Position numbers and translations under genes: made by a program. A stretch of 13,998 bases of DNA from positions 1 to 13,998 of the IMG/VR virus record IMGVR_UViG_2740892233_000016; one strand, given 5' to 3'. Positions 1,243-13,998 of the stretch are shown here, piece after piece (within the stretch, counting starts at the first letter, position 1; each line of letters starts with the position of its first letter). The DNA is from a virus. Lineage: Duplodnaviria; Heunggongvirae; Uroviricota; Caudoviricetes. Under the pieces are notes generated by a model. It was not told the DNA's origin, did no database searches, and was given only the letters and a program-made list of their open reading frames with translations.

Positions 1243-1319
1243 CTGTACAGAAAACCAGTAAAAACTACGAAAACCATGTAAAACCGTCGTATAATTGCAT
1301 CAAATTTAACGACAAGGCC

Positions 1320-1571
1320 GTGAAACATGAAACCGTTAAGATGCAAAAAAATATCAGATGCAATTGCGACGGGCTGCAACTGGCCCTGATGGTTCAGCAT
1401 GAATTTTGGTCAACCTACGATCCGGAGGACAGAACGACGGCCCCATCAAAAAAACAGGTAGTAGATTTTCTGGTATCCCGTGGCGCTTCCAGAAATCTGG
1501 CGGTAAGTATTGATAAGGTCGTACGTCCGGCATCTATGAAGATCGGAGGCAGGCCCAAAAAATGGCGGTAA
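1320..1571 (+). CDS. Hypothetical protein (83 aa)
   Basis: ORF between int and alpA, immediately followed by a clean intrinsic terminator; no recognisable family; weak RBS (AAGG). Confidence 0.35.
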   Translation: MKHETVKMQKNIRCNCDGLQLALMVQHEFWSTYDPEDRTTAPSKKQVVDFLVSRGASRNLAVSIDKVVRPASMKIGGRPKKWR

Positions 1572-1582
1572 CAATCCTGGAA

Positions 1583-1605
1583 GCGGCAGAAATGCCGCTT
1601 TTTTT
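1583..1605 (+). terminator. Rho-independent terminator
   Basis: GCGGCA-GAAA-TGCCGC hairpin followed by T7 run. Confidence 0.6.
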
Positions 1606-1634
1606 ATAATTCCATTTCAAATCATCAATATAAA

Positions 1635-1672
1635 AAACGGTGTATACCGTTTAAAAACGGTGGGAACTGTTT
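1635..1672. promoter_or_regulatory. Cluster of AAACGGT/ACCGTTT half-site repeats upstream of alpA (putative operator)
   Basis: AAACGGT(1635..1641), ACCGTTT(1646..1652), AAACGGT(1655..1661), ACTGTTT(1666..1672) forming overlapping inverted repeats about 70-100 bp upstream of the alpA start. Confidence 0.3.
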
Positions 1673-1738
1673 TTACCCATATCCGATGATTTACCGTATT
1701 TGTCACCGGAATACACCGGATTCACAAGGTAAATCACG

Positions 1739-1945
1739 ATGGAAGCAATCAGAAAAATTATCTTTCGCCAGGAAGTAAAAAAAATTATCCACATCAAGGC
1801 AGACAGCACGCTGCAAAGCATGATCAACGCCGGAGAATTTCCGCAGGGTTTTCGCGTTGGTTTACGCCGTCGCGGATGGTATGAGGATGATGTGTTGTCC
1901 TGGCAGAAAGAACGCGAAGAGGAAGCACGCGGAACGGCTGCTTAA
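1739..1945 (+). CDS. alpA: AlpA-family (prophage CP4-57-type) transcriptional regulator
   Basis: 68 aa; ...STLQSMINAGEFPQGFRVGLRRRGWYEDDVLSWQ... matches the AlpA helix-turn-helix signature (..AGEFP.P.K.G.R...W...V..W). Confidence 0.85.
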   Translation: MEAIRKIIFRQEVKKIIHIKADSTLQSMINAGEFPQGFRVGLRRRGWYEDDVLSWQKEREEEARGTAA

Positions 1946-2093
1946 CGGGTATCACAGATATGACAAACACGAAAAAAGCGGCCCCGATATGGAGCCGCCT
2001 TTCTGAACAATTAACCCGCTGCGCCTTATGTGTATGTGATCCCAAACATAAGCACGGGGATGATAGCCGCTATCAGGCTGGTGGGCAATGCAA

Positions 2094-2282
2094 TCAGTCT
2101 GGTTCAGTTCGTTGCCATACCTGCAATGAGCGCTTTTCCCTGTACTCTTTAAGGAATTGCTCAAGGGCAAAAGCACATGGCGCGAATCTTTCTGATTCAT
2201 GCTCTATCTTTCTGCGCCGTCTTTTCCGTGCCGGTGATAATGTTTTGGTCAATTCTTTATCGGTCATTGTGTTGTCCTGCAT
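2094..2282 (-). CDS. Hypothetical small basic protein (62 aa; alternative start at 2267 gives 57 aa with AGGA RBS)
   Basis: Minus-strand ORF downstream of Arc-like gene 1; contains RKRRRRK basic stretch; antisense frame on + strand is open (typical of real coding DNA). Confidence 0.4.
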   Translation of the reverse strand: MQDNTMTDKELTKTLSPARKRRRRKIEHESERFAPCAFALEQFLKEYREKRSLQVWQRTEPD

Positions 2283-2324
2283 AGCAATGCGCCGTAATAC
2301 CTCACACCACGGCGCTGATAGTTT

Positions 2325-2498
2325 TTATCCTTTGGGTTCTATGCCGCGTTGCTGTAATTCTTTGCGGAGAACGCGTTTAATCCAAGTGGCTAAAGATGTG
2401 TCGCCATCGGCCTTAGCTGCTTCTTCTAGCTGCGCTCTGAAGTCTTCCGGTAATCGCATTTGGTATGGAGGCGAACGTTTTTCTAATGGTGTTGACAT
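2325..2498 (-). CDS. Arc-like ribbon-helix-helix repressor (57 aa), module 1
   Basis: Not in the ORF track (<60 aa). Translation MSTPLEKRSPPYQMRLPEDFRAQLEEAAKADGDTSLATWIKRVLRKELQQRGIEPKG has the RHH pattern (beta strand ..MRLPEDF.. then two helices). RBS GAAGGG 8 nt upstream; start codon overlaps the divergent promoter/operator. Confidence 0.7.
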   Translation of the reverse strand: MSTPLEKRSPPYQMRLPEDFRAQLEEAAKADGDTSLATWIKRVLRKELQQRGIEPKG

Positions 2499-2538
2499 GG
2501 TAATTACCCTTCATTACTATACCTACATGGTAATTACC
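2492..2538 (+). promoter_or_regulatory. Rightward sigma70-like promoter (TTGACA-N17-TACTAT) with two copies of palindromic operator GGTAATTACC
   Basis: TTGACA 2492..2497, TACTAT 2515..2520; 14-mer ACATGGTAATTACC at 2495..2508 and 2525..2538 (palindrome cores 2499..2508 and 2529..2538, exactly 30 bp apart), overlapping spacer and +1. Confidence 0.55.
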
Positions 2539-2628
2539 ATTGTACTTGCCATTACACAAAAATCAACGCCCCGCAGTGCTGGGAACACATACGGGGCGTC
2601 TAACCAACAACGTAAACTAGGAGCCGTT

Positions 2629-3189
2629 ATGGTTGCCGTAAATCATATACCACACCTTGTACACACACAAACGGCCTTTGTGTGGCGTTTTCTGGCCCTG
2701 AATATCGGAGAAAAAAACCAGTTGATCGCCAGTGTCGAAAATAGCTATGATTCCCGCGCACCTCATAAAACGGGTGCCGGGATTGGCGTCCTGGGCAAAA
2801 CTGAAGCGCATAACACGCGCCCCGCGTGTTTTTTTGTGCCGCATAGTCACACCTTATCAATGGTGGGCTGTACGGGGGCGGAGCAATCCGCGCCGGTTTC
2901 TTCAGTGTCCGGTTACGCCAACCCTGTACAGTCCGCCACCAGCGAAATTGGCGTTTCCGGTGGCGGTTATCTTAACCACACTGAGGAGGCTGCCAACATG
3001 GCTACTATCCCTACCCTTGTACATTCTCAAACCGCCTTTCTCTGGCGCTTTATCATCTTTGGCGCGTCAGAACATCAAATCATCCACGTAACCGCCTGGA
3101 CGGAACGCGAAGCGCGTAGCCGTTGCCCGTCCGGTTGTGTTGCTGTATTCGCCGCCCGTATTCGTCAGGAGGTGTGCCATGTGCAATAA
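2629..3189 (+). CDS. Early-operon protein with internal tandem repeat of a small domain ending ...FAARIRQEVCHVQ (possibly Icd-like family; unverified)
   Basis: 186 aa from ATG 2629 with strong RBS AGGAG (2619..2623); two internal copies of motif ...LVH(T/S)QTAF(V/L)WRF(L/I)... ; the ORF-track 409-aa ORF is an upstream run-through of this frame. Confidence 0.6.
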   Translation: MVAVNHIPHLVHTQTAFVWRFLALNIGEKNQLIASVENSYDSRAPHKTGAGIGVLGKTEAHNTRPACFFVPHSHTLSMVGCTGAEQSAPVSSVSGYANPVQSATSEIGVSGGGYLNHTEEAANMATIPTLVHSQTAFLWRFIIFGASEHQIIHVTAWTEREARSRCPSGCVAVFAARIRQEVCHVQ

Positions 3190-3400
3190 AACCACACCGG
3201 ACGCAGCAGCCGCCGCGCTCACTACGCTGATGCACGCGCTTATCGATATTGAATGCACTGCAGAGCTTGCGCAGGGAGAAGAACAGAAAGACCGGACACA
3301 GTTCGCCCTGGAATGTATCCGATACATCGCAACGCGGTCGCTGAATGACGCTAAAAATATTCTTGTTGCTGATTGTGAAAATGGGGGGGGTTATGCGTGA
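3179..3400 (+). CDS. Hypothetical protein, N-terminal half of module-1 gene 2 (split relative to module-2 homolog)
   Basis: ATG 3179 overlaps stop of upstream gene (ATGTGCAATAA), RBS AGGAGG; homolog of N-terminal half of 4481..4945; terminated just after a G8 tract (3383..3390). Confidence 0.5.
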   Translation: MCNKTTPDAAAAALTTLMHALIDIECTAELAQGEEQKDRTQFALECIRYIATRSLNDAKNILVADCENGGGYA

Positions 3401-3614
3401 TGATCGTTTTAATTCCCTGAAACAAGAATTTTCCGGCGTTCCTGATGATGCGGCTGATGCGCTTTCGTCAATATCTGAAATTATGCGGGTGGCTTTTTTC
3501 TTTCTTTGCACTGATGAGCACAGAGATACAGGGCTAAATATTCTTGATATTGCCGCTAACTATGCTGATTTCGTGACAGAAGCTGTTTTAAGAAAAACAA
3601 CGGACGGGGATTAA
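3393..3614 (+). CDS. Hypothetical protein, C-terminal half of module-1 gene 2 (MRDDRFNSLKQEFSGVPDD...)
   Basis: Starts at ATG 3393 with the G8 tract acting as Shine-Dalgarno; near-identical at nucleotide level to 4713..4800 of the module-2 fused gene. Confidence 0.5.
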   Translation: MRDDRFNSLKQEFSGVPDDAADALSSISEIMRVAFFFLCTDEHRDTGLNILDIAANYADFVTEAVLRKTTDGD

Positions 3615-3615
3615 T

Positions 3616-3849
3616 ATGCGTGATATTTACCACGAAACAATAGACCGCGCATTTAGTGCCCTTGCTTACGCTGAAGGTATGTACGAAATATTGCGCATAT
3701 GGCTTGAAACACTTGGCGACAATGAACGCGACAAACAAAAATCAAGAATTGCCACGGCATTAATAACGCTTCTTGATCCTGTAATAATGGAACTGCAAGA
3801 AATAGATCTATTGCACGACAGATATAACGAACAGCACACCGGAGAATAA
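3616..3849 (+). CDS. Hypothetical protein (77 aa), module 1
   Basis: MRDIYHETIDRAF...; paralog of 4938..5171 (about 85 percent aa identity); start overlaps the preceding stop (TAATATG). Confidence 0.6.
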   Translation: MRDIYHETIDRAFSALAYAEGMYEILRIWLETLGDNERDKQKSRIATALITLLDPVIMELQEIDLLHDRYNEQHTGE

Positions 3850-3873
3850 AAATAATGAAACTTAAATATTCTG

Positions 3874-3883
3874 NNNNNNNNNN
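3874..3883. other. Run of 10 N (gap or masked bases) at junction between module 1 and module 2
   Basis: Directly seen; truncates a gene start MKLKYS... (ATG 3855) that is the paralog of 5177..5476. Confidence 0.9.
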
Positions 3884-3905
3884 TACACCACGGCGCTGAT
3901 GGTGA

Positions 3906-4085
3906 TTACTCTGGTTCTTTGGCCTTGCGCCGCTGGCGATATTCAACTTCTCGTTTTAATGCTGCAGTAACAAATTGCCCCGTACTTTCGCCAGGCATTT
4001 TTACCGCCTCAACATTGTTCATAACTTCATGCGGAACCCTTGCCGCAACGGTTTGTGATTTTGCGTTTACTGCTTTTGTCGCCAT
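3906..4085 (-). CDS. Arc-like ribbon-helix-helix repressor (59 aa), module 2
   Basis: Not in the ORF track (<60 aa). Translation MATKAVNAKSQTVAARVPHEVMNNVEAVKMPGESTGQFVTAALKREVEYRQRRKAKEPE; RBS GAGGGG 8 nt upstream; divergent from the module-2 promoter. Confidence 0.65.
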   Translation of the reverse strand: MATKAVNAKSQTVAARVPHEVMNNVEAVKMPGESTGQFVTAALKREVEYRQRRKAKEPE

Positions 4086-4135
4086 GTGGTGTACCCCTCA
4101 TAAAAAACAAATGCAGTATGCAGGAAAAAAAATAA

Positions 4136-4187
4136 GTGTTCAACACTTGACGTGTTTAACACCTGGGTTTAAATTGGTGTTCAACAC
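4136..4187 (+). promoter_or_regulatory. Rightward promoter (TTGACG-N17-TAAATT) with three copies of near-palindromic operator GTGTT(C/T)AACAC
   Basis: Sites at 4136..4146, 4152..4162, 4177..4187; -35 TTGACG 4147..4152, -10 TAAATT 4170..4175. Confidence 0.5.
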
Positions 4188-4284
4188 CTTGTTGGCGCAA
4201 GGTGCAGAAACGACGAAACCCGGCAGTGCGCTAACACTAACCGGGCTTCTAACCACCAACGATAGCGAAAGTATCGAGGTAGCT

Positions 4285-4491
4285 ATGAGAAATCATACCA
4301 CACACCCGCAAGGGCGGGACTCGCACAACCTGAATAAATACATCTGGCGTTTTATCGCCCTGAGCACGGCACAACCGCGCGTGATTACCATTGAGGCCAC
4401 CAGCGAACAGGAAGCACGCCAGCAATCTCCGGCTGGCTGCGTGATGGTATTCGCTGCCCGTATTCGTCAGGAGGTGTGCCATGTGCAATAA
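4285..4491 (+). CDS. Small protein ending ...FAARIRQEVCHVQ (single-domain paralog of 2629..3189; possibly Icd-like)
   Basis: 68 aa from ATG 4285 (RBS GAGG); C-terminal 25 aa nearly identical to C-terminus of 2629..3189; the ORF-track 190-aa ORF is an upstream run-through crossing the promoter. Confidence 0.55.
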   Translation: MRNHTTHPQGRDSHNLNKYIWRFIALSTAQPRVITIEATSEQEARQQSPAGCVMVFAARIRQEVCHVQ

Positions 4492-4945
4492 CATCCGTCC
4501 GGACGCAGCCGCCGAAGCCATCATAACGCTAATGCACGCGCTGATTGATATTTCTGTTATCGCAGACATGGCGCATAAGCACGCCACCAGTGAAACAGAA
4601 TATGCCGGGGCTTTCGTTCCTCATTCGCTGGCGGTTATGCAACTTAGTGCGGATATGGCGCTGAATGAGGCCAAAGCCATCCTGATTGCTGATTGTGAAA
4701 ATGGGGGGGTTATGCGTGATGATCGTTTTAATTCCCTGAAACAGGAATTTTCCGGCGTTCCTGATGATGCGGCTGATGCGCTTTCGTCAATGCCAGAACT
4801 TATTAGAGCGGCTTTTTTCTTACTTTCCACGAGAGAATATAAATCAACGGGGCTTGATGTACTGAATATCGCCGCCGATTATGCGGAATATGTGGCAGAG
4901 GCGCGTTATAGAAGAAAATTTCCTGAGGATGTAAGCCATGCGTGA
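4481..4945 (+). CDS. Hypothetical protein (154 aa), module-2 gene 2 (fused form)
   Basis: ATG overlapping upstream stop, RBS AGGAGG; reads through a G7 tract (4703..4709) where module 1 has G8. Confidence 0.6.
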   Translation: MCNNIRPDAAAEAIITLMHALIDISVIADMAHKHATSETEYAGAFVPHSLAVMQLSADMALNEAKAILIADCENGGVMRDDRFNSLKQEFSGVPDDAADALSSMPELIRAAFFLLSTREYKSTGLDVLNIAADYAEYVAEARYRRKFPEDVSHA

Positions 4946-5171
4946 TATTTACCACCAAACAATAGACCGCGCATTTCTTGCACTTTCTCACAGTGAAAAC
5001 ATGCTGGAAATATTGCGCATATGGCTTGAAACACTTGGCGACAATGAACGCGACAAACAAAAATCAAGAATTGTCACGGCATTAATAACGCTTCTTGAGC
5101 CTGTAATAAATGAGTTGCAGGAAATAGAGACATTGCACGACAGATATAACGAACAGCACACCGGAGAATAA
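4938..5171 (+). CDS. Hypothetical protein (77 aa), module 2
   Basis: MRDIYHQTIDRAF...; overlapping start/stop with the upstream gene. Confidence 0.6.
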   Translation: MRDIYHQTIDRAFLALSHSENMLEILRIWLETLGDNERDKQKSRIVTALITLLEPVINELQEIETLHDRYNEQHTGE

Positions 5172-5176
5172 AAATA

Positions 5177-5476
5177 ATGAAACTTAAATATTCTGGCTTA
5201 ACTGCCAGTGGCAACACTCACCCTAAATTTACGCGCGGTGATATTTACCGCGACCAGTACGGCGGCACGGTAATGATTAAGGGCGTGGCGGGACGGTGCG
5301 TAACTTACCGCCGTGAAGGTTACGAATATGATTGCGTGATGCCTGTTTATCAGTTCCGGCGTGATTTTTCTCTGGTACAGACCGCGCCGCATAACGTGCC
5401 CACCAGCAACGCCAGGGCACGGGCAAACATCCAGAAGCTGAAAACCATGATTAACGGATTCAGGGGCAAGAAATGA
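5177..5476 (+). CDS. Hypothetical protein (99 aa), translationally coupled to the rep-like gene
   Basis: Stop overlaps the rep start (ATGA at 5473..5476); the first 6 codons are duplicated at 3855..3873. Confidence 0.55.
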   Translation: MKLKYSGLTASGNTHPKFTRGDIYRDQYGGTVMIKGVAGRCVTYRREGYEYDCVMPVYQFRRDFSLVQTAPHNVPTSNARARANIQKLKTMINGFRGKK

Positions 5477-6873
5477 AAAGCGCACCGAACTTAAAAAAAC
5501 AGCCTTACGACAAGATGACCGAAGTCATTATTTTTGCGGGTAGTGATGCCTGGGCACATGCGAAACAGTGGCAGGAACAGGACGGGCGACTGGCTGGCGA
5601 TAATGTGCCTCCCGTTGTGCTGGCTGATGATCAACTGGATGAACTGGCAGACCTGAGAATCATCGACGAGGGGCGCTATTGTGTCCGGCTGTACAAGGCA
5701 GGCCACATCAGGCCATCAAATATTAATGCCATTGCGCACAAGCTGGCGGCGGCGGGTGTAACTGATGCGAATTATTACCCCGAAGGGATGCACAGCCATA
5801 TGCGGGAGAACTGGCGCGAATACCTGGAACGGGTGCGCGGGAAAGAGCCGGCGGAAGAAAAAAACCACCAGCGAAAAACCACGCTACCGATGAGCGTTGG
5901 ATCTACCGGATACGACACGCAACTGGATTACGTGGTTAAGGGGATTATTCCGGCGGTATCGCTATGCAGCATATACGGGGCTAGCGGGTCCTATAAATCA
6001 TTCCTTGCCGGATCGTGGGCGTGCCATGTTGCCACTGGTCGCCAGTGGGGAGGCCGCAGGGTTGCACATGGTGCGGTTCTCTATGTGGTTGGTGAAGGCG
6101 GTATAGGTGTTCCGCGTCGTGTAAAAGCCTGGGAGGTTGTGCACGATGAGCAGGTGAAAAATCTGTATCTGGTAAACCGCCCCATCTTTCCGGCTGCCCC
6201 GCTTGATGTTGATGAAATGGTTATCGCTGCCCGTCAGGTGGAGCGGGAAACGGGTAAACCTGTACGCATGATTATTCTGGATACGCTGGCGCGTTGCTTT
6301 GGTGGGAATGATGAAAATGATTCCCGTGATATGGGGGCGTTTATCCGTGGTTGTGACGAACTGAAACGACGCACAGGGGCCACGGTGCTGGTGGTTCACC
6401 ATTCCGGCAAGGATGAGACGAAAGGCGCGCGCGGTTCCAGTGCATTTCGTGCTTCGCTGGATGCTGAATACCGGATACGCAGGGAGGACGCAGGAAGCGA
6501 AGCGCTGGTTATCTCATGCACCAAAATGAAGGACGCGGAGGAACTCAAAGAAGCCGCATATGACTTACGCGTGGTGGAGCTTTTTACCGACGCTGACGGT
6601 GAATTAATCACGTCGCTGGTGGTGGTGGATGATCCGCGCCCTCCTGTTGAACTGGAGCGCATCGAGGAGGCAGGGAACAAGACGGAAAACCATACCGCGC
6701 TATGGGGGTGCATCCGTTCACGCACACAGAACGGCGACAAGTGCACGATCCCGCTGTTACGTGATGACATGAAAAAGCTGGGGTATGAAATGAAAAACTT
6801 CCGGCGCTGGCTGTACAAGCTGGAAAAAGATGGGGTTATTCGTATCGATGGGGATGATGTAGCGCCGCTATAA
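5473..6873 (+). CDS. RepA-like AAA ATPase / replicative helicase of the satellite (AAA_25-type)
   Basis: 466 aa; Walker A-like GASGSYKS, Walker B-like ...RMIILDTLARCF..., ...VLVVHHSGKD... motif typical of RepA/DnaB-like RecA-fold helicases; iterons begin at its stop codon. Confidence 0.8.
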   Translation: MKSAPNLKKQPYDKMTEVIIFAGSDAWAHAKQWQEQDGRLAGDNVPPVVLADDQLDELADLRIIDEGRYCVRLYKAGHIRPSNINAIAHKLAAAGVTDANYYPEGMHSHMRENWREYLERVRGKEPAEEKNHQRKTTLPMSVGSTGYDTQLDYVVKGIIPAVSLCSIYGASGSYKSFLAGSWACHVATGRQWGGRRVAHGAVLYVVGEGGIGVPRRVKAWEVVHDEQVKNLYLVNRPIFPAAPLDVDEMVIAARQVERETGKPVRMIILDTLARCFGGNDENDSRDMGAFIRGCDELKRRTGATVLVVHHSGKDETKGARGSSAFRASLDAEYRIRREDAGSEALVISCTKMKDAEELKEAAYDLRVVELFTDADGELITSLVVVDDPRPPVELERIEEAGNKTENHTALWGCIRSRTQNGDKCTIPLLRDDMKKLGYEMKNFRRWLYKLEKDGVIRIDGDDVAPL

Positions 6874-7063
6874 AAGTGAGGAGCAAAAGCGAGGGGGATA
6901 GAAAGAGGGCCAAAATTAGCCCGCTCTCCCTCACTTTTCGACCTGTATACATCCTCAAAAGTGAGGGGTAAAAAAATACTTATGAAACACACACATAGAA
7001 AAACCGAAAATCCCAACTGCGACGAAGTGAGACGCTTGAAAAAGTGAGGCGAAAAAGTGAGAG
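6873..7063. repeat. Iteron array AAAGTGAG(G/A) (putative replication origin)
   Basis: Direct copies at 6873, 6958, 7042, 7055 (plus GAAGTGAGA 7024 and degenerate AAAGCGAGG 6885, AAAGAGGG 6902) and one inverted copy CCTCACTTT 6929..6937; AT-rich stretch 6968..7010 between them. Confidence 0.6.
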
Positions 7064-7073
7064 GTTGCGAGAA

Positions 7074-7293
7074 ATGACCCAAAAACGCAGAGACAGAACA
7101 GAGCCAAAATATAAAGCGTTAGACATGACTGAGCACACCTTAAAGGTGGCAATCAGAACGATAGACCGCCACACGCGGGAAGGATACGCGAAGGAACATC
7201 CCGACCTGATAAGCGCATTCATGACCACGGCGGCGGCAAACTTTGCCACGCTGACAGAACGGGAGATTGCCGAAGCGGAACAGGTAACAACCA
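7074..7293 (+). CDS. Hypothetical protein, 3' end obscured by N run
   Basis: ORF from ATG 7074 (MTQKRRDRTEPKYKALDMTEHTLK...) running into the N run at 7294..7303; true stop unknown. Confidence 0.35.
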
Positions 7294-7303
7294 NNNNNNN
7301 NNN
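7294..7303. other. Run of 10 N (gap or masked bases)
   Basis: Directly seen. Confidence 0.9.
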
Positions 7304-7319
7304 CCGGAGAGGTGGAATT

Positions 7320-7730
7320 ATGACGGCACAGATAGCCGCTTACGGGCGGCTGGTGGACGACCCGCAGGTAAAACAGACCAGCAAGGGCACACCGATGACG
7401 CTGGCGCGTATGGCGGTATCTTTGCCATGCAGCCAGGCACAGGACGGACAGGCGACGTTATGGTTATCGGTCATCGCATTTGGCAAACAGGCCGACTTCC
7501 TGGCTAAACATCAAAAAGGCGATGTTGCCAGCGTATCCGGCACGATGCAGGTAAGCCAGTGGACCGGACAGAACGGAGAAACGCGGCAGGGCTGGCAGGT
7601 TATCGCAGACAGCGTAATCAGTGCCCGCGCGGCACGTCCAGGCGGGAACAGACGCAAAACCACAGGCACACAGGGTAATCAGCCACCAGCGGGAGGCGAT
7701 GACCCTTACGGTGATGATATTTCGTTCTGA
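7320..7730 (+). CDS. ssb: Single-stranded DNA-binding protein
   Basis: 136 aa from ATG 7320 (RBS GGAGAGGTGG); OB-fold pattern aligns with E. coli SSB (..GRLVDDPQVK.. / ..WLSVIAFGKQADFLAKHQKGDVASVSG..QVSQWTGQNGETRQ..), acidic C-terminal tail ...DDPYGDDISF. Confidence 0.85.
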   Translation: MTAQIAAYGRLVDDPQVKQTSKGTPMTLARMAVSLPCSQAQDGQATLWLSVIAFGKQADFLAKHQKGDVASVSGTMQVSQWTGQNGETRQGWQVIADSVISARAARPGGNRRKTTGTQGNQPPAGGDDPYGDDISF

Positions 7731-7740
7731 GGGGGTGACG

Positions 7741-8013
7741 ATGGTACATGACCGCATAGCGGAGGAACTGGAGGCGAAAGGCTTTTACCGGAGGGCGGCG
7801 GCGCGATGGGGTGAAGTCATGCAGCTGGTGGAGACAGACAAGGAACGGCATCACATCACGATGCGACGGCTGGAATGTTCAAGGAAGGCACAGAGGGCAC
7901 CGGAGCCGCCGGATAATTTCGGAGACCTGAAAAAGGCAGTCGATCGCACTTATGCCGAAATGGGTATAGATGGTGCTGGTGATGAAATATGGCGCAATTA
8001 CCAGGACAGCTAA
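7741..8013 (+). CDS. PerC-like transcriptional regulator
   Basis: 90 aa; N-terminus MVHDRIAEELEAKGFYRRAAARW... resembles the PerC-family N-terminal signature (recalled from memory; needs HMM confirmation). Confidence 0.55.
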   Translation: MVHDRIAEELEAKGFYRRAAARWGEVMQLVETDKERHHITMRRLECSRKAQRAPEPPDNFGDLKKAVDRTYAEMGIDGAGDEIWRNYQDS

Positions 8014-8019
8014 TCAAAC

Positions 8020-8043
8020 AGCCGGAGAAATCCGGCTTTTTTT
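8020..8043 (+). terminator. Rho-independent terminator (AGCCGGA-GAAA-TCCGGCT + T7)
   Basis: Perfect 7-bp stem, GAAA loop, T-run. Confidence 0.65.
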
Positions 8044-8139
8044 GCACCAGTTGAAACGGTATGGCGCATTACCGGGTTTTCGTCACGGTCAGGCATAGTT
8101 ACTATCTGAAACAAACAGACACAACAGAGGAAAAAAACA

Positions 8140-8364
8140 ATGCCGATGAAATTTGATGAGATATTAAAACAGCGTGATAAATACCATGCTGACAACATGG
8201 AGACGATGAGCATCAATGATTACCGCGCATTCCTGGAGACGGGCGCACTGATTGAAAAGGATCAGCATGGTTTTGTGAGATGTGCTCTATCCGGTGAAAT
8301 GCTGGCGGTAAATCCTGAACAGATAGATGCATTGATAGAATTTCTGAAAGAGATCAGAGACTGA
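8140..8364 (+). CDS. Hypothetical protein (74 aa)
   Basis: RBS GAGG upstream of ATG; followed by two terminators. Confidence 0.5.
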   Translation: MPMKFDEILKQRDKYHADNMETMSINDYRAFLETGALIEKDQHGFVRCALSGEMLAVNPEQIDALIEFLKEIRD

Positions 8365-8383
8365 GCCAGCACACAGCACACAT

Positions 8384-8406
8384 AGCCGGAGCAATCCGGC
8401 TTTTTT
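8384..8406 (+). terminator. Rho-independent terminator (AGCCGGA-GCAA-TCCGGCT + T6)
   Basis: Near-identical to the hairpins at 8020 and 10658. Confidence 0.65.
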
Positions 8407-8412
8407 GCGCCC

Positions 8413-8454
8413 AAAAAAAGCCCGATAAGGTCAGAGGGTTCTTATCGGGCTTTT
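8413..8454. terminator. Bidirectional terminator-like hairpin (A7 - GCCCGATAAG...CTTATCGGGC - T4)
   Basis: 10-bp perfect stem with 11-nt loop, flanked by A-run and T-run. Confidence 0.5.
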
Positions 8455-8510
8455 GCATATGAGGTTTTTGGATGCACTGGCGTTCGTGATCGGGATAATC
8501 ATTTCATAAT

Positions 8511-8580
8511 TTGCAACATAACTCAATATCATTGCATAAAATGCAATTCTGATTATAATCAGGACTGGATGAACATCCAG
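8511..8580 (+). promoter_or_regulatory. Late (morphogenesis) promoter region: TTGCAT-N16-TATAAT embedded in three perfect palindromes
   Basis: ATTGCATAAAATGCAAT (8531..8547), CTGATTATAATCAG (8549..8562, contains TATAAT), CTGGATGAACATCCAG (8565..8580); the downstream operon starts at 8616. Confidence 0.5.
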
Positions 8581-8615
8581 TTATGATTTTTTAAGTCGAA
8601 GAGGAATTTCTTACT

Positions 8616-8822
8616 ATGGCTGAAGAGAAAAAAGGCGGTGTTTCGGTGTACATAAGCCCCGACATCGTGAAGGCGCTCAAGGAACGCCACCAGCAGAACG
8701 TAAAAGCAGGCATTGCGGCAGGACTTGATCCGCTGGCGATGGTTGAGCCGTCAACAGGCTGGCAGGTCCGCGCCTATTTACGCGCGGCGCTGGGCATGAA
8801 TCAGACGCATGGAGGTGAATAA
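8616..8822 (+). CDS. Hypothetical protein (68 aa), translationally coupled to the capsid gene
   Basis: Stop TAA overlaps capsid ATG (TAATGG); RBS GAGGAA upstream. Confidence 0.5.
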   Translation: MAEEKKGGVSVYISPDIVKALKERHQQNVKAGIAAGLDPLAMVEPSTGWQVRAYLRAALGMNQTHGGE

Positions 8823-9877
8823 TGGCAGGCAAAGCAACGGCACTTAACACTAACCAGCTTTTCGCGTACCTGAATCGCGGGGATATTGCAGAATTTAAAT
8901 TCAGTCCGCTGTTTACCACGCTGTTTTTCCCGAACGTGGCGACCTTCAACACCCAGAACATCATGCTGGACACCCTGGACATTGAAGAGGTTACGATGTC
9001 AGCGTTCTGTTCGCCTATGGTGGGTAGTCAGGTCCAGCGCGATAAAGGGTACGAAACCAGCACGATTAAACCAGGCTACATGAAACCCAAACACGAAATC
9101 GATCCAACAAAAACCATCATGCGCATGGCTGGAGAAGATCCGGCACAGCTTAACGATCCTACCTATCGCCGTATGCGCCTGATTACTGGCAACATGCGCC
9201 GCCAGATAAACGCCATTAAGGCACGCGTGGAATGGCTGGCGGTGAATGCGGTAACGACCGGAAAAAACCTCATTGAGGGCGAAGGCATAGAACGCTATGA
9301 AATCGACTGGAAGATCCCGGAAAGCAATATCATAGAACAGGCTGACGGTAAAAAATGGTCTGAGCTGGATAAAGAAACACACGATCCAATCTATGACATC
9401 GAGCTTTATGCTGATCAGGGCAATTGCCCCGCAAACGTCATGATTATGGGCGCTGAAGTATGGCGCACGTTACGCAGCTTTAAAAAATTCCGCGAACTGT
9501 ACGACCTTTCCCGTGGTTCAGAATCCGCCGCAGAACTGGCCTGTAAAAACCTGGGTGAAGTGGTGAGCTTTAAAGGCTATCTGGGCGATATTGCCCTTGT
9601 CGTCTATTCCGGCAAATACACTGACAGCGACTGCACCGAAAAATATTTCCTTGAGCCTGATTTGCTGGTCCTGGGTAACACCAACAATAAAGGGCTGGTG
9701 GCCTATGGTGCGATTATGGATCAGGAAGCGGTCAGAACGGGCGCAACGCAAAACATGTTTTACCCGAAAAACTGGATTGAGGACGGCGATCCGGCGATTG
9801 AGTACGTGCAGACGCACAGCGCACCGCAGCCGGTACCGGCAGATATTCGCAAATTTGTTACCGTCAAAATTGGTTAA
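8822..9877 (+). CDS. Major capsid protein, lambda gpE-like
   Basis: 351 aa; collinear similarity to lambda gpE: FKFSPLFTTLFF vs FKFDPLFLRLFF; KPGYMKPKHEIDP vs TPGYVKPKHEVNP; EDPAQLNDPTYRRMRLI vs EDPQNLADPAYRRRRII; SFKGYLGDIALVVYSGKY vs SYKGMYGDVAIVVYSGQY; FYPKNWIEDGDPAIEY..HSAP vs RYPKNWVTTGDPAREF..QSAP. Confidence 0.9.
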   Translation: MAGKATALNTNQLFAYLNRGDIAEFKFSPLFTTLFFPNVATFNTQNIMLDTLDIEEVTMSAFCSPMVGSQVQRDKGYETSTIKPGYMKPKHEIDPTKTIMRMAGEDPAQLNDPTYRRMRLITGNMRRQINAIKARVEWLAVNAVTTGKNLIEGEGIERYEIDWKIPESNIIEQADGKKWSELDKETHDPIYDIELYADQGNCPANVMIMGAEVWRTLRSFKKFRELYDLSRGSESAAELACKNLGEVVSFKGYLGDIALVVYSGKYTDSDCTEKYFLEPDLLVLGNTNNKGLVAYGAIMDQEAVRTGATQNMFYPKNWIEDGDPAIEYVQTHSAPQPVPADIRKFVTVKIG

Positions 9878-9889
9878 CGGGGGGATTCT

Positions 9890-10225
9890 ATGGACACTCC
9901 ATACATTGAGTTATTTGCAGGTAGTCAGCAGGTATCCACGACGCTGGTACATTTTGCTGCTGATGCTGGCGTTATTCAGGAATTTACCCCGCTGATGCTG
10001 GCGGAAAATGGCGAGTTTAAGCCGTGGGATGGTCAGGAATCTGGCAAGGCTGTTTATCTGACCTCGTACCCCGTGGACACGTCGACGCAGAAATCAGCAC
10101 AGTGCTACAAGACGGGGATATTCAATATTGCCGCCGTTAACTGGCCTGAGAGCGCCGACACCGACGCGAAAAAATGCGCCGCCTTTGCGGGTTCTGGCGT
10201 ATCCGTTCAGCCGCTGGCGCGATAA
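9890..10225 (+). CDS. Head decoration protein, lambda gpD-like
   Basis: 111 aa; TPLMLAENGEFKPWDG... and ...CYKTGIFNIAAVNWPESADTDAKKCAAFAGSGVSVQ parallel lambda gpD TPLMLDTSSRKLVAWDG... and ...[36 protein letters not shown]. Confidence 0.85.
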   Translation: MDTPYIELFAGSQQVSTTLVHFAADAGVIQEFTPLMLAENGEFKPWDGQESGKAVYLTSYPVDTSTQKSAQCYKTGIFNIAAVNWPESADTDAKKCAAFAGSGVSVQPLAR

Positions 10226-10237
10226 GCAGGGGGAACG

Positions 10238-10651
10238 ATGGCAACGAATGAAAGTATCATGACGCTACCGCTGGCGAGTAAATTTAAAGCCGAAGCGCGG
10301 GCAATGGCTGACAGAGGTTTATCAACCTACGAGGCCGTATATCAACTTAACAGCCTGGAAGAGAAGGACAAGCCGCGCGCTGATGCGATTATGGCGCTTC
10401 ATGAATCTGACGACTATCAGCCGCTGTTACGTGCAATGGCAAACGTGCCTTGTATTGATGTTGATACGGCTAAAAACATCCTGAACATGACCATAGAGCA
10501 GGAACGCCCGAAGGTTGCACCAGAGCTTACCGCAGCCTTTGAAAACTTTATGGACATGCACAGCCCACAAGCCGTATCAGCTGGCATGGCATACGATGGC
10601 AGAAACCCGGGCGATGACGGCGACATCGATCGCATACTGAAAACCATCTGA
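10238..10651 (+). CDS. Hypothetical protein (137 aa) in the capsid module
   Basis: RBS GGGGGAACG; follows gpD-like gene; ends at a terminator; no recognised family. Confidence 0.55.
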   Translation: MATNESIMTLPLASKFKAEARAMADRGLSTYEAVYQLNSLEEKDKPRADAIMALHESDDYQPLLRAMANVPCIDVDTAKNILNMTIEQERPKVAPELTAAFENFMDMHSPQAVSAGMAYDGRNPGDDGDIDRILKTI

Positions 10652-10657
10652 GACAAG

Positions 10658-10679
10658 GCCGGAGAAATCCGGCTTTTTT
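10658..10679 (+). terminator. Rho-independent terminator (GCCGGA-GAAA-TCCGGC + T6)
   Basis: Third copy of the same hairpin sequence. Confidence 0.65.
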
Positions 10680-10703
10680 GCGGGTCCTTTCCGGCATATG
10701 GAC

Positions 10704-10745
10704 CTGTTACGGGGCGGAGACCTCGCGGATTTTCGCTATTTATGA
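10704..10745 (+). other. cos site 1 (lambda-type cosN, variant cohesive-end sequence GGGCGGAGACCT at 10712..10723)
   Basis: CTGTTACG-GGGCGGAGACCT-CGCGGATTTTCGCTATTTATGA matches the lambda cos junction GTTACG-GGGCGGCGACCT-CGCGGGTTTTCGCTATTTATGA with 2 mismatches; lies about 145 bp upstream of the Nu1-like gene, as in lambda. Confidence 0.7.
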
Positions 10746-10818
10746 GCCTTTTCAGGGGGGTGGTGGTGGTTTTGTTGTTTGATCTATCTTTATGAATGAA
10801 AAGGGAAAGATGCAAGCA

Positions 10819-10854
10819 ATACACCAACCTGAAGCAGTAATTAAGTTGGTGTAT
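10819..10854. repeat. Perfect 10-bp inverted repeat ATACACCAAC-N16-GTTGGTGTAT abutting the Nu1-like start codon
   Basis: Directly seen; right arm ends 2 nt before the ATG at 10857. Confidence 0.6.
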
Positions 10855-10856
10855 TA

Positions 10857-11399
10857 ATGAAATCTCATCTGATGAACAAAAAAAACATGGCGAAAAGCTG
10901 CCGTGTAAGTGCGACAGCGTTCGACAAGTGGGGAGTAACTCCCGTTGAGCGTAAAGGCCGTGAGGCGTTTTATGATGTTGCCAGCGTGATAGAAAATAGG
11001 GTTAACAATGCAATTAGCCAGCTTATAAACGACAAAGGCGAGATTGACGATGATGAACTTTTACGAGTCAGGATCAGATTACTGACAGCACAGGCAGAGG
11101 CGCAGGAACTTAAAAACGATCGCGATCGCGGTGACGTGATTGATACTGAGTTTTGCCTGTACGCGCTTTCAAAGCTGGCGAGTCAGATTTCATCAATCAT
11201 GGACATCCTCCCGCTTACTATGCAAAGGAGCTTCCCACAGATTACCCCCGCCATGCTGGACAGGCTTAAAAGGGAAGTGGTTAAAGCCTGTAATGCCAGT
11301 GCCAGAGTTGCCGACAACCTCCCACAGATACTGGCTGATTACTTGAAAGAAACAACCGGAAACGTACCGGAAAAGTTGCTACAGAAGAAAGGCGAGTAA
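10857..11399 (+). CDS. Terminase small subunit homolog, lambda Nu1-like (possible packaging-redirection factor)
   Basis: 180 aa vs lambda Nu1 181 aa; LTAQAEAQELKNDRDRGDVIDTEFCLYALSKLASQISSIMDILPLTMQRSFPQ vs lambda LTRAQADAQELKNARDSAEVVETAFCTFVLSRIAGEIASILDGLPLSVQRRFPE; N-terminal DNA-binding region is similar but more diverged. True start may be the second ATG (10872). Confidence 0.85.
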   Translation: MKSHLMNKKNMAKSCRVSATAFDKWGVTPVERKGREAFYDVASVIENRVNNAISQLINDKGEIDDDELLRVRIRLLTAQAEAQELKNDRDRGDVIDTEFCLYALSKLASQISSIMDILPLTMQRSFPQITPAMLDRLKREVVKACNASARVADNLPQILADYLKETTGNVPEKLLQKKGE

Positions 11400-11427
11400 C
11401 AGACGCGCAATTATTGAACAAAAATGA

Positions 11428-11489
11428 GAAAGGATCTGATAATGGCATTTTCTGGCTAAAATGCCTCGTGTCAGATCCTTTCTTTTTTT
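11428..11489 (-). repeat. Nested inverted repeat GAAAGGATCTGA...TCAGATCCTTTC + T7 (cosB R-element-like for cos site 2; could also act as terminator for the Nu1-like gene)
   Basis: 12-bp perfect outer arms (11428..11439 / 11471..11482) with inner hairpin GGCATTTT-CTGGCT-AAAATGCC; same position and architecture as the lambda cosB repeat GAAAGGAAACGACAG...CTGTCGTTTCCTTTC relative to cosN. Confidence 0.55.
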
Positions 11490-11573
11490 AATATTTTCAT
11501 TGTTAAACAGTCTGTTACAGAGAAGAAGATCGGATCTGACTTTTGCCGGAAAATTCTCATAAACAGATAAAAA

Positions 11574-11596
11574 CCGCGAGGTCGCCGCCCCGTAAC
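11574..11596 (-). other. cos site 2 (exact lambda cosN including cohesive-end sequence GGGCGGCGACCT, minus orientation)
   Basis: + strand CCGCGAGGTCGCCGCCCCGTAAC is the exact reverse complement of lambda GTTACGGGGCGGCGACCTCGCGG; adjacent reverse-strand sequence TTTATGAGAATTTTCCGG matches lambda TTTATGAAAATTTTCCGG. Confidence 0.65.
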
Positions 11597-11654
11597 GGGC
11601 CATAATTCCAGGAAGGACCCGACGACACCAGACTATCAGAGCGATGGGGGCACA

Positions 11655-11936
11655 ATGACAGAAGCCGAACTACTGGGATTAATCCGCCGCGTCGCCGGAA
11701 TCAGCCAGCAGCATGACGAACAGGCCACACAGCCGGACAGCGTGACCGCTGAAAATTATGTGCGTGTTGTAGCGGAAGTGATGCGCCGTGATGGTATAGA
11801 ACTTAATGGCGTTGATATGCGCAACATACGGAACCGCGTTCTTGAAATGCTGGCCTACAATCGCCGCGTTGAACTGTATCGGGAGAAAGAAAAAATAACG
11901 TACCACTGGAAGAAGCCGGAACGGCTGCGGCGGTAA
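11655..11936 (+). CDS. Hypothetical protein (93 aa)
   Basis: ORF with RBS GGGGG; no recognised family. Confidence 0.45.
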   Translation: MTEAELLGLIRRVAGISQQHDEQATQPDSVTAENYVRVVAEVMRRDGIELNGVDMRNIRNRVLEMLAYNRRVELYREKEKITYHWKKPERLRR

Positions 11937-12024
11937 CTTGCTGATATTCCCGATAACGCAAAATTGCGCTGGCTACATCCCTCACATCTGAGGACTGTTA
12001 ACCAGAAGGCCGGAATATATTCAC

Positions 12025-12047
12025 AAACTACGAAATTTTCGTAGTTT
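12025..12047. repeat. Perfect 23-bp palindrome AAACTACGAAA-T-TTTCGTAGTTT near right junction
   Basis: Directly seen; 11-bp perfect arms. Confidence 0.6.
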
Positions 12048-12537
12048 AATTAATGGTCAGATTAATCGCTAACCCGCTGATATTTTCGGAAACCTCAATT
12101 TGAGGAAGTCGGAAGCGTCACCCTTCATATTCTGAATGGTCATAATGACCACGCAGACCATCAAGGCAACCACAACGAACATCGTTACGGTTGGAGCTTT
12201 TACCCCACTGGGGGAAAGGTATTACGATAATCATAACACCTACCGAACAGGTAAAACCCACCAGCCTGATTAACAGTTAACCGGAAAAAAAATCCGGTAG
12301 CCCCGTTATGGGGATCCCCATATCGACATTAACGCCCCTCATGAATTGGTGCGCTTCCCCCTGGAAAGATTACCCGCCTGTATATTTCTTGTGTCTATTT
12401 GTTCCACGTTGTTTCATACAGTGCACCGAACGGTGTAGTTAATGGTGTAGTCAATTTGCTGTTTTTAGCACTTTTTGCAGTGTGTGTTGTTTAATTAAAT
12501 CAATGGGTTGCCTTGCTGTGGTGATAAAAGGACATAT

Positions 12538-13998
12538 TTATTCATCTTTCGGCGCAGAATGCTGGCGACCAAAAATCACCTCCATCCGCGCACCGCCCAG
12601 CATGCTCTCTCCGGCGACGATTTTACCCTCATATTGCTCGGTGATTTCGCGGGCTACCGCCAGCCCTACACCTTGCCCAGGGCGTAAAGTATCAACCCGT
12701 TGACCACGGTCGAAAATGACCTCTCGCTTGCTTAATGGAATACCGGGGCCATCATCCTCGACCACAATATAGAGATGCTCGTCGGTTTGCCTTGCAGAAA
12801 TTTCGACAAACTCGAGGCAATATTTACAGGCATTATCCAGCACGTTGCCCATCACCTCGACAAAATCGTTCTGCTCACCGACAAAGCTGATCTCTGGCGA
12901 AATATCGAGAGAGATATTGACCCCTTTGCGTTGATACACTTTGTTCAGCGCTGAGGTGAGATTGTCCAGCAGTGGGGCGACCGGATGCAGCTCGCGGCTG
13001 AGCAATGTCCCGCCGCGCATACTGGCACGATGCAGGTAGTAGCCAATTTGCTGTGAAATGCGGCTGATTTGCTCCAGCATTACCGGCTCAGCATCACTGA
13101 CGCTCATCTTTTCACTACGCAGAGAACGCAGCGTACTTTGCAGCACCGCCAGTGGCGTTTTCAGACTATGGGTCAGGTCGGTGAGCGTCGTACGGTATTT
13201 GTCGTAACGTTCGCGTTCACTTTTTAACAATCGGTTCAGGTTTCGTACCAGACTGGTCAGTTCTCGCGTTGTGGCTGGATTGAGCAATTCGCGGTTATGT
13301 TCTTCCAGTTCGCGGACTTCTTTTGCCAGGGCTTCGATGGGGCGTAAACTCCACCAGGCGGCGACCCACAGCAGCGGGATCACTAACAGCAGATTGGCTG
13401 AGAGCACATAGATAAACCAGCTCCAGACCATATAGGAACTTTTTAGCTCCACCGGAATGGTATCCACCACCACAATGGTTAATTTTGGCATCCGCGATGT
13501 TGCCGGGTAGACGTTTACTGCCACCGAGTGGGTCATCTCCGCGTCGTCATCATCTTCCCGCACTTCCTGCAACTGTTGCTGTATCGAATGATCTCCACTC
13601 AGCAAGAGGCTGGTATCGTTAACATCCGCTTCAATTTCATGAAAACCATTCGATTTCAGCCAGTCAGGCTGGATCATCTTCATCAGCCAGGGCACGTCAC
13701 GTTGCGCCCATAAAAGCTGCCCGTTCTCATCATAAATTAGCGTCATGGTGGGGCTTTGCTTGTCGATATTTTCGGGTAACTCGACATGCAACTTATTGTT
13801 TTCCCACTTCGCAAGGGTATAGAACAGATTGCTCTCGCCACGTAACAGCCGAAACGTAGTTTTATCGAAACTGACGCTATAACCGATCAGCGCGACCATT
13901 CCGTAGGCAAGCGAAAGCACCAGTACTACCGCAGCCGTTGCCAACAGAAAACGTACCCGCAGTGAGAGCGGGAAAAAAAGACGCAGTAATTTTTTCAT
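12538..13998 (-). CDS. phoQ: Sensor histidine kinase PhoQ
   Basis: 486 aa; translation matches E. coli PhoQ along its length as recalled ([60 protein letters not shown]... , H-box ...[13 protein letters not shown]..., ATP-binding domain ...DDGPGIP...[12 protein letters not shown]...). Confidence 0.97.

Follow-up and report, generated by a model that had tools for sequence, protein, structure and literature searches.

Introduction

In phage lambda, cosB is organized in the order R3-I1-R2-R1, with R2 in opposite orientation to R3 and R1 (PMC9026076). The R3 site of phage N15 has been defined by mutation at bp 48-59/60 (PMC4669245, PMC9026076), and the R sites of both N15 and the Monarch phages have been described, the Monarch group combining the N15 recognition helix and R sequence with a lambda-like tripartite cosB and an IHF site (PMC4669245). 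Among cos-type phage-inducible chromosomal islands (PICIs), an island-specific cosB is established for the Rpp type (Fillol-Salom 2019, PMC6739421), and the one proposal that treats PICI cosB in detail has a single R3 without R2 or R1, read by heterodimers of Rpp and the phage small terminase, TerS (Murialdo and Feiss 2022, PMC9026076). E. coli PICIs that encode a TerS of their own are also known (PMC6092414), and no description of cosB in such TerS-type islands was found in the literature searched. The subject of this report is a perfect inverted repeat directly upstream of the terS-like gene of an island of this kind, contained in a stretch of 13,998 nt (positions 1 to 13,998 of the IMG/VR virus record IMGVR_UViG_2740892233_000016; hereafter “the window”).

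With a rough probability of 0.6, the repeat represents the R2/R1 pair of TerS-binding sites within the cosB of cos1, the first of two cos sites of the island. Confidence is higher for the left arm taken alone and lower for a right arm that is required. This assignment is based on sequence, position, orientation, homology and conservation patterns, from which we infer protein binding, the recruitment of a helper large terminase (TerL) and any need for R1.

The inverted repeat upstream of the terS-like gene

The repeat is formed by the arms AATACACCAAC (10818-10828) and GTTGGTGTATT (10845-10855), which are perfectly complementary over 11 bp and enclose a spacer of 16 nt (10829-10844, not assigned to a strand). 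Within the arms, ATACACCAAC (10819-10828) and GTTGGTGTAT (10845-10854) make up a fully complementary 10-bp core. A preliminary description of this DNA had reported a perfect 10-bp repeat with an N16 spacer, ending 2 nt before the start codon, and the sequence bears this out; the 11-bp version ends 1 nt before the ATG at 10857. This ATG is the real start of the terS-like gene, since the N-terminus M-x-x-H-L-(L/M)-N-K-K is kept across genera although the codons differ, and the same start is given in the RefSeq annotation.

When the 133-bp segment between cosN and the ATG was shuffled 20,000 times with preservation of dinucleotides, a perfect 10-bp inverted repeat with a spacer of 3-40 nt arose in 0.32% of cases. 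The repeat is real, and its origin by chance is unlikely (approximately 0.003 for the cosN-to-ATG segment). For the whole 14-kb window, a comparable 11-bp repeat arises in 11% of 500 shuffles. A second exact copy of the 10-mer is absent from the window, and its sole matches with one mismatch, ATACAGCAAC at 3139-3148 and 13575-13584 on the minus strand, both lie outside the cos1 region. Three more perfect inverted repeats with arms of 11-14 bp and short spacers are found elsewhere in the window: ATGGTAATTACC (2497-2540), CCCTCACTTTT (6928-6967) and AAAAGCCCGATAAG (8416-8454). Altogether, five such repeats are present, as compared to about 0.15 qualifying 11-bp arm positions per window in shuffled sequence.

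Position and orientation within cos1

Positions in cos1 are numbered from bp 1 at 10712, as set by alignment to the left end of lambda. A cosQ-like block on the plus strand, GGGTCCTTTCCGG (10682-10694), is identical to the block at the right end of lambda, lies at the same 17-nt distance from the nick and was found in all prophage and island loci compared. The cosN cohesive end, GGGCGGAGACCT (bp 1-12; 10712-10723, plus strand), was located by the same left-end alignment and carries an A at position 7 in place of the lambda C. Further downstream, the R3-position block GGTGGTGGTGGTTTTGTTGTT (bp 48-68; 10759-10779, plus strand) has its G/T-rich strand oriented as in the right arm. The left arm of the repeat (bp 107-117, minus strand) is a candidate TerS site equivalent to R2, and the right arm (bp 134-144, plus strand), its perfect complement, is a candidate equivalent of R1. 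The right arm overlaps GGTG (10848-10851), a Shine-Dalgarno (SD)-like sequence of the terS-like gene, which starts at bp 146 (10857-11399, plus strand) and encodes a full-length Nu1-family protein of 180 aa that presumably reads the repeat.

The repeat spans bp 107-144, between cosN and the terS-like ATG as in lambda-like cosB regions, so the earlier placement in the lambda-like position between cosN and Nu1 was correct. String matches locate R3 at bp 53-68 in lambda and at bp 53-70 in cos2, the second cos site of the island, and the G/T-rich block of cos1 at bp 48-68. R2 is found at bp 109-124 in lambda and bp 108-120 in cos2, and R1 at bp 151-166 and bp 152-164, the cos1 counterparts being the left and the right arm. 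Because R2 and R1 of both lambda and cos2 also form an inverted repeat, the repeat can be regarded as the positional and orientational equivalent of this pair. The left arm, which runs opposite to both the right arm and the G/T-rich R3 block, matches the published rule for the orientation of R2.

The cohesive ends of the two cos sites differ from each other at position 7, with GGGCGGAGACCT in cos1 and GGGCGGCGACCT in cos2 and in the cos1 of most relatives. Some related islands have cohesive ends with quite different right halves, such as GGGCGTCAGGCG in locus L008 and AGGCGGCAGCGT in locus L018.

The TerS-like protein

The 180-aa product matches the Pfam family Phage_Nu1 (PF07471) above the gathering score (E 7.9e-23). 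In an hhalign comparison of its family profile with lambda Nu1, residues 6-166 were aligned to Nu1 residues 3-180 with 99.9% probability. This alignment includes the C-terminal segment of Nu1, to which TerL binding is assigned (PMC9026076), and the island protein is therefore a complete small terminase. Identity as a short Rpp protein (135-153 aa) is ruled out by its length of 180 aa and by the full Nu1 alignment; the Rpp-like protein of a related locus (L005) is clearly different. The nearest TerS of a named phage is N15 gp1, with 44% identity over the whole length (E 6e-51). Residues 5-47, comprising the helix-turn-helix (HTH) and the wing, hardly vary even among family members whose overall identity is as low as 56%.

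The evidence for homology of the DNA-binding domain comes from hhalign and BLASTP. A search of PDB sequences with the TerS yielded nothing meaningful, lambda Nu1 and RppC remaining unmatched at E values up to 1, and the AlphaFold model of the protein is of low confidence, with a mean predicted local distance difference test score (pLDDT) of 51. Scanning genome contigs with the TerS protein produced no relatives; those used here were taken from viral contigs and E. coli genomes or retrieved by look-ups of the exact protein. TerS alone among DNA-binding proteins is encoded alongside the motif in every context compared. What lies upstream of cos varies: the gene there codes for a 137-aa protein in the window, for an AlpA-like protein in another island clade and for lysis or other functions in prophages.

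Relationship to the N15 and Monarch R sequence

The cos2 sites of two related islands (L005 and L022) matched cos1 of the window and led to lambdoid prophages in which the same cosB type is followed by terS and terL. In 39 distinct sequences of these prophages, an R3-position copy, GGTTGTTGTTT, is located at bp 50-61, an IHF-like site at bp 73-86, R2 with the sequence A(T/C)ACAACAACC at bp 107-118, and R1, GGTTGTTGT(A/T)T, 59 or 71 bp downstream. The corresponding arm pair, ATACAACAAC...GTTGTTGTAT, has a spacer of 59-71 bp. Though the spacer diverges, A(T/C)ACAACAAC ... GTTGTTGT(A/T)T is kept at 9-10/10 complementarity in all 39 sequences. By these sequence features, the prophages correspond to the Monarch group as described in the literature, in which the N15 recognition helix goes together with three R sites (PMC4669245).

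The right arm in the window is one substitution away from the Monarch R1 core GTTGTTGTAT. At bp 48-60, N15 reads GAGGTTGTTGTTT, and since N15 R3 shares this core, the repeat is one base removed from an experimentally defined TerS recognition site. The N-termini of the two proteins, MAFLLNKSDMASSIGISVQAFDKWGVPPVERRGREVFYDV in Monarch-type TerS and MKSHLMNKKNMAKSCRVSATAFDKWGVTPVERKGREAFYDV in island TerS, clearly represent the same DNA-binding domain. The idea that the repeat is a cosB element read by the DNA-binding domain of the Nu1-like protein is supported by this comparison, through the left arm at bp 108, the Monarch R2/R1 pair and the shared domain; its origin as an island-specific element is not, as a single base separates it from the N15/Monarch R sequence.

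Differences in the recognition helix run parallel to differences in the motif. N15 and Monarch have the helix S-VQ-AFDKWGV and the motif ACAACAAC, the E. coli islands have S-AT-AFDKWGV and ACACCAAC, and the Enterobacter and Citrobacter islands have G-VT-AFDKWGV and ACACCCAC. Relative to N15/Monarch, the recognition helix of the island TerS is altered at two residues (AT for VQ), and each of the arms carries a one-base change. Instead of the combination of SVQAFDKWGV and GGTTGTTGT that marks N15/Monarch specificity, the window has SATAFDKWGV and the arms GGTTGGTGT / ACACCAACC. Judged from these sequences, the island is a diverged relative of the N15/Monarch group and not a member of the same specificity. 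The island-specific base is present in both arms of the window (C in the left, G in the right), so that the change is compensated across the arms. Matched bases in the two arms would be expected if one altered helix reads both, which is suggestive, with the comparison comprising three classes only. The repeat is best read as a putative compacted R2/R1 pair of a cosB derived from the N15/Monarch type.

Conservation in related islands

A lack of conservation in related islands had been named in the preliminary description, alongside a lack of binding, as an outcome that would refute the proposal, and conservation holds for one half of the repeat: the left arm is conserved, whereas the perfect repeat is present in only 10 of 46 sequences. 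The sample consisted of 46 distinct sequences reaching from cosQ to the ATG, drawn from E. coli genomes, from contigs of IMG/VR and from islands of Enterobacter and Citrobacter. While its flanks diverge, the left arm is kept as A[T/C]ACACCAAC in E. coli and as ATACACCCAC in Enterobacter/Citrobacter. It starts at bp 108 in all island variants, including Enterobacter and Citrobacter islands at 57-58% protein identity, with the exception of a single deletion variant (L012, bp 100), and at bp 107-108 in Monarch-type prophages. Between islands and Monarch-type prophages, the start codon shifts from bp 138-151 to bp 218-229 and the left arm does not move. Because its position is fixed while the start codon moves, the left arm is anchored to cosN and not to the gene.

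The R3-position block (GGTGGTGGTGG/TTTTGTTGTT) is likewise largely conserved across the 46 sequences, those of Enterobacter and Citrobacter included. Its (GGT)n/G-run varies in length and composition, as seen in L111 and in L113, where it is 3 bp shorter. A clade of about 84% identity (L002, L004, L009-L012 and many IMG/VR loci) carries the left-arm motif twice in tandem, as AACACCAAC-ACACCAACC (bp 100-117 of cos1), and one copy of this duplication has been lost from L012 by an 8-bp deletion.

The right arm is far more variable. The perfect version, GTTGGTGTAT with 10/10 complementary positions, occurs in ten sequences, all of which contain one identical 51-bp segment of repeat plus spacer. 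Thirteen sequences have GTTGTGGTAT (8/10 complementary), 19 have GT(T/G)GGG(A/G)TAT or similar (6-7/10), and in three distant islands the right arm is merely an SD-like GAGGTG, GGTGGG or GAGGAA. Among the right-arm variants are GTTGGGATAT, GTGGGGATAT and GTGGGGGTAT. In every island, the right-arm region is the SD sequence of terS. As far as these sequences indicate, the perfect repeat is a trait of one very common island lineage, and the family-wide feature is the left half only.

Evaluation of the R2/R1 assignment and of alternative explanations

Several observations weigh against the assignment of the repeat as an R2/R1 pair. The right arm is degenerate (4-8/10 complementary) in 36 of the 46 island sequences, it coincides with the SD region, which by itself is a constraint toward G-rich sequence, and nothing shows selection on the repeat as such, because the ten perfect copies share one haplotype segment. 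The segment GGTGGTGGTTT of the R3-position block (bp 51-61) matches the arms at 7/11 positions, compared to 10/11 for the Monarch-type R3. With at most one mismatch allowed, the IHF consensus WATCAANNNNTTR is missing between R3 and R2 in cos1 of the window and of the other islands, whereas the same scan detects an IHF-like site in Monarch-type phages, lambda and cos2; a missing I1 is not disqualifying for the wider group, as N15 also lacks it. The centers of the arms are 26-27 bp apart (approximately 2.5 helical turns), which would place them on opposite faces of straight DNA. Finally, the TerS-encoding island of strain IHE3034 was not mobilized in the only published test (PMC6092414).

The degeneracy of the right arm is what would be expected if only the left arm were functional and the right arm were what is left of a decaying ancestral R1, with no present role beyond that of ribosome-binding site (RBS) and no function in its perfect match to the left arm. 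The free variation of the right arm among islands (GTTGTGGTAT, GTTGGGATAT, GTGGGGATAT, GTGGGGGTAT) next to an invariant left arm is consistent with such a relic, as are the Enterobacter and Citrobacter islands, which keep the left motif and have only an SD sequence on the right side, and the restriction of the perfect version to a single haplotype block. Moreover, N15 works with R3 alone, and mutation of a conserved base in lambda is most severe in R3 and milder in R2 or R1 (PMC9026076, PMC4669245). However, plain decay would not predict that the right arm carries the island-specific G that matches the C of the left arm instead of the ancestral Monarch T. The perfect-repeat haplotype is also the commonest one, accounting for 467 of 767 genomes at 95% identity or more, and R1 is strongly conserved in Monarch-type phages. 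Taken together, a function of the left arm alone appears rather unlikely.

In a further explanation, the main role of the repeat is that of a hairpin in the leader RNA of terS, with a stem that hides the SD sequence and throttles or conditions TerS translation. The predicted hairpin has a free energy of -17.1 kcal/mol (z = -3.0 versus shuffles), the right arm covers gene positions -12 to -2, and in this haplotype the SD region is unpaired with a mean probability of 0.10, as compared to 0.24-0.69 in other island variants (0.36-0.55 in E. coli variants). The stem could be opened by translational coupling to an upstream open reading frame (ORF; 10792-10857, MNEKGKMQAIHQPEAVIKLVY) of 21 codons; 42 of the 46 distinct island sequences keep this frame open up to a stop that overlaps the terS start (TAATG, TGATG or ATGA). 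This ORF lacks an SD sequence of its own, and its openness is statistically unremarkable. It has 21-22 codons in the islands and occurs in 18 peptide variants; in the window it runs through both arms, its TAA overlapping the terS ATG (TAATG).

The RNA pairing itself is not kept, as most related islands show 4-8/10 complementary positions and have a stronger and more accessible SD sequence (GGGGAT). A further point against a primary RNA role is that, in islands and phages alike, the distance of the left arm to cosN is constant and that to the start codon is not. Whether the corresponding transcript exists is uncertain, since a promoter scan identified no sigma-70-like promoter on the plus strand upstream of terS and a terminator-like hairpin precedes cosQ. 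Rfam contains no family over the repeat. RNA covariation was rejected as a reading of the single compensated difference between island and Monarch, which would arise just as well from two half-sites of one protein, and the pairing breaks within the islands. A terminator role for the repeat was also rejected, as it lacks a T-run in the promoter and terminator scan.

The preliminary description had additionally proposed a hairpin that occludes the RBS, and this is computationally plausible in so far as the stem covers the SD sequence, but most related islands have lost the pairing. A regulatory hairpin as the main role of the repeat is accordingly doubtful. An RNA effect could coexist with a DNA role rather than replace it, and it is plausible from the folding predictions that RBS occlusion is a side effect specific to this haplotype.

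That the repeat is an operator for another dimeric regulator of island, helper or host origin, controlling terS expression or the accessibility of cos, is highly improbable: dyad symmetry with arms of 10-11 bp is typical of operators and the island encodes several small DNA-binding proteins (an HTH regulator and PerC), but no sigma-70-like promoter is predicted nearby, the prophages and islands with the motif have none of these regulators in common, spacers of 16, 59 or 71 bp are incompatible with a simple dimeric operator, and the motif equals the mutationally defined TerS site of N15. The HTH/AlpA-like protein encoded upstream of cos in some islands was dismissed as a specific candidate for an operator-binding protein, its gene being absent both from the island in the window and from the motif-sharing prophages.

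A model for a possible function of the repeat in packaging

If the repeat is an R2/R1 pair, the winged-helix domain of the island TerS would recognize the island version of the R sequence, GGTTGGTGT in place of GGTTGTTGT. Its putative sites would be the R3-position block (bp 48-68), the left arm as R2 (bp 107-117) and, in this lineage, the right arm as R1 (bp 134-144). The lambda-like C-terminal tail of TerS would then recruit the large terminase of a helper phage, which would nick cosN of the island and thereby initiate packaging of island DNA. Relative to the Monarch cosB, the element would have been compacted by a reduction of the R2-R1 spacer from 59-71 bp to 16 bp, so that R1 came to overlap the ribosome-binding site of terS.

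As a speculative extension, TerS-encoding cos PICIs, which are present in approximately 14% of complete E. coli genomes including enterohemorrhagic E. coli (EHEC) of serogroups O157, O26 and O145, might use a hijacking route that differs from the Rpp route. In this scenario, for which the odds appear low at present, the TerS helix (VQ to AT) and the R sites (T to G) would have co-evolved from the N15/Monarch specificity, the helper TerL would be captured directly, and an R1 located on the RBS could autoregulate TerS dosage. The dosage would be set either by binding of TerS to the DNA or by the RNA hairpin together with the coupled 21-codon leader ORF.

Genomic context and distribution of the island

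The window represents a cos-type PICI of E. coli. It contains an integrase, a replication module and a partial packaging module in an element of about 12 kb between core genes, with phoQ at the right flank; terL, portal and tail genes are absent from the island. The gene order is integrase (1-1242), Ash-family protein, RepA-like helicase, SSB and PerC, followed by a capsid protein resembling lambda gpE (8822-9877), a decoration protein resembling gpD (9890-10225) and a 137-aa ORF, and subsequently by cos1, the 180-aa Nu1-family gene, the inverted cos2 and a 93-aa ORF. The region from 8822 to 10651 combines the capsid (gpE-like) and decoration (gpD-like) homologs and the 137-aa protein without portal, protease or large terminase. 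In another island clade, the gene for the 137-aa protein is swapped for one encoding a 127-aa AlpA-family HTH protein.

Directly downstream of the 137-aa ORF and just upstream of cosQ, a terminator-like hairpin (GCCGGA-GAAA-TCCGGC + TTTTTT, 10658-10679) is located that was missed by the consensus scan. For transcription of the terS-like gene, either read-through or an unrecognized promoter would therefore be required.

Cos2 (11427-11590, minus strand) lies outside the repeat, is convergent to cos1 and has a complete lambda-style cosB with a different R sequence. It consists of cosN (11590-11579), R3 with the sequence CAGATCCGATCTTCTTCT (11538-11521), an IHF-like site (11501-11489), and R2 (11483-11471) and R1 (11439-11427), which form a perfect 13-bp inverted repeat, AGAAAGGATCTGA; all of these elements are on the minus strand. 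Other types take the place of this cos2 in related islands, namely a CATGTCGG type in L002 and L006 and a Monarch type in L005 and L022. To judge from these exchanges, cos2 acts like an exchangeable copy of the cos of a helper phage.

The 119-bp cosB region was detected in 767 of 5426 complete E. coli genomes, with at least 99% identity in 353, 95-99% in 114 and 80-90% in 294. With 467 of the 767 at 95% identity or above, the perfect-repeat haplotype is the commonest. Carriers include O157:H7, O26:H11 and O145:H28 strains as well as IHE3034, whose island is among the TerS-encoding PICIs named by Fillol-Salom et al. 2018 (PMC6092414). The IHE3034 cosB region is 96.6% identical over the 119 bp, and its repeat and spacer are identical to those of the window.

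Comparison with known packaging systems

The arrangement described here would provide a concrete map of the packaging signals of very common and so far uncharacterized E. coli satellites, the TerS-encoding cos PICIs, and ties the packaging specificity of the island to the TerS lineage of N15 and Monarch. The paired small changes, two helix residues and one base pair, may be considered a natural specificity-switch pair.

Rpp-type cos PICIs such as EcCICFT073 (PMC6739421, PMC9026076) share with the island the capsid-like and decoration-like genes, cos1, a Nu1-related gene, the inverted cos2 and the 93-aa ORF, and their island-specific cosB likewise differs from that of the helper. Unlike the island, they encode a short Rpp (135-153 aa) that lacks a TerL-binding tail and must heterodimerize with the phage TerS. 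One R3 only is proposed for their cosB and rpp begins at bp 102, whereas the island has a 180-aa TerS starting at bp 146 and additional candidate R2/R1 copies. In the Rpp-type cos1 of locus L005 (3802-3700, minus strand), GGTGACACCACCACCACTTGA at bp 48-68 includes a C/A-rich ACACCAC that resembles the left arm of the window; it sits at the R3 position, in opposite orientation to the R3 block of the island in the window.

Lambda cosB corresponds to the island in the positions of R3 (near bp 50-68) and of the oppositely oriented R2 (near bp 108-124), in the R2/R1 inverted repeat between cosN and Nu1, and in a TerS that aligns end to end. It differs by an unrelated R sequence (CGTTTCC-type), 16-bp arms with a gap of 26 bp, an R1 that ends 24 bp before Nu1, and the I1 IHF site. 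N15 shares the R core, GGTTGTTGT at bp 50-58, which is one base off the island arms, but has no R2/R1 upstream of gene 1 and only a remote rR2 inside the gene; a comparable rR2-like copy is not found with up to two mismatches within the island terS (10857-11399).

The closest counterpart is the Monarch cosB (Feiss et al. 2015, PMC4669245). Both share the same cosQ/cosN type, an R or R-like sequence at bp 50-61, an opposite R2 at bp 107-118 with a direct copy downstream, the inverted repeat just before terS, and a TerS with an AFDKWGV-PVER-GRE-FYDV DNA-binding domain. The R sequences are distinguished by one base, ACAACAAC in Monarch versus ACACCAAC in the island, and the spacer between R2 and R1 measures 59-71 bp in Monarch versus 16 bp in the island, with the consequence that the island R1 overlaps the terS RBS. 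In contrast to Monarch, the island shows no IHF consensus, has a (GGT)n-rich R3 block that matches the arms at 7/11 positions, and is a satellite without terL. In terms of its sequence, the element would be a compacted, specificity-shifted cosB of the Monarch type that resides in a satellite.

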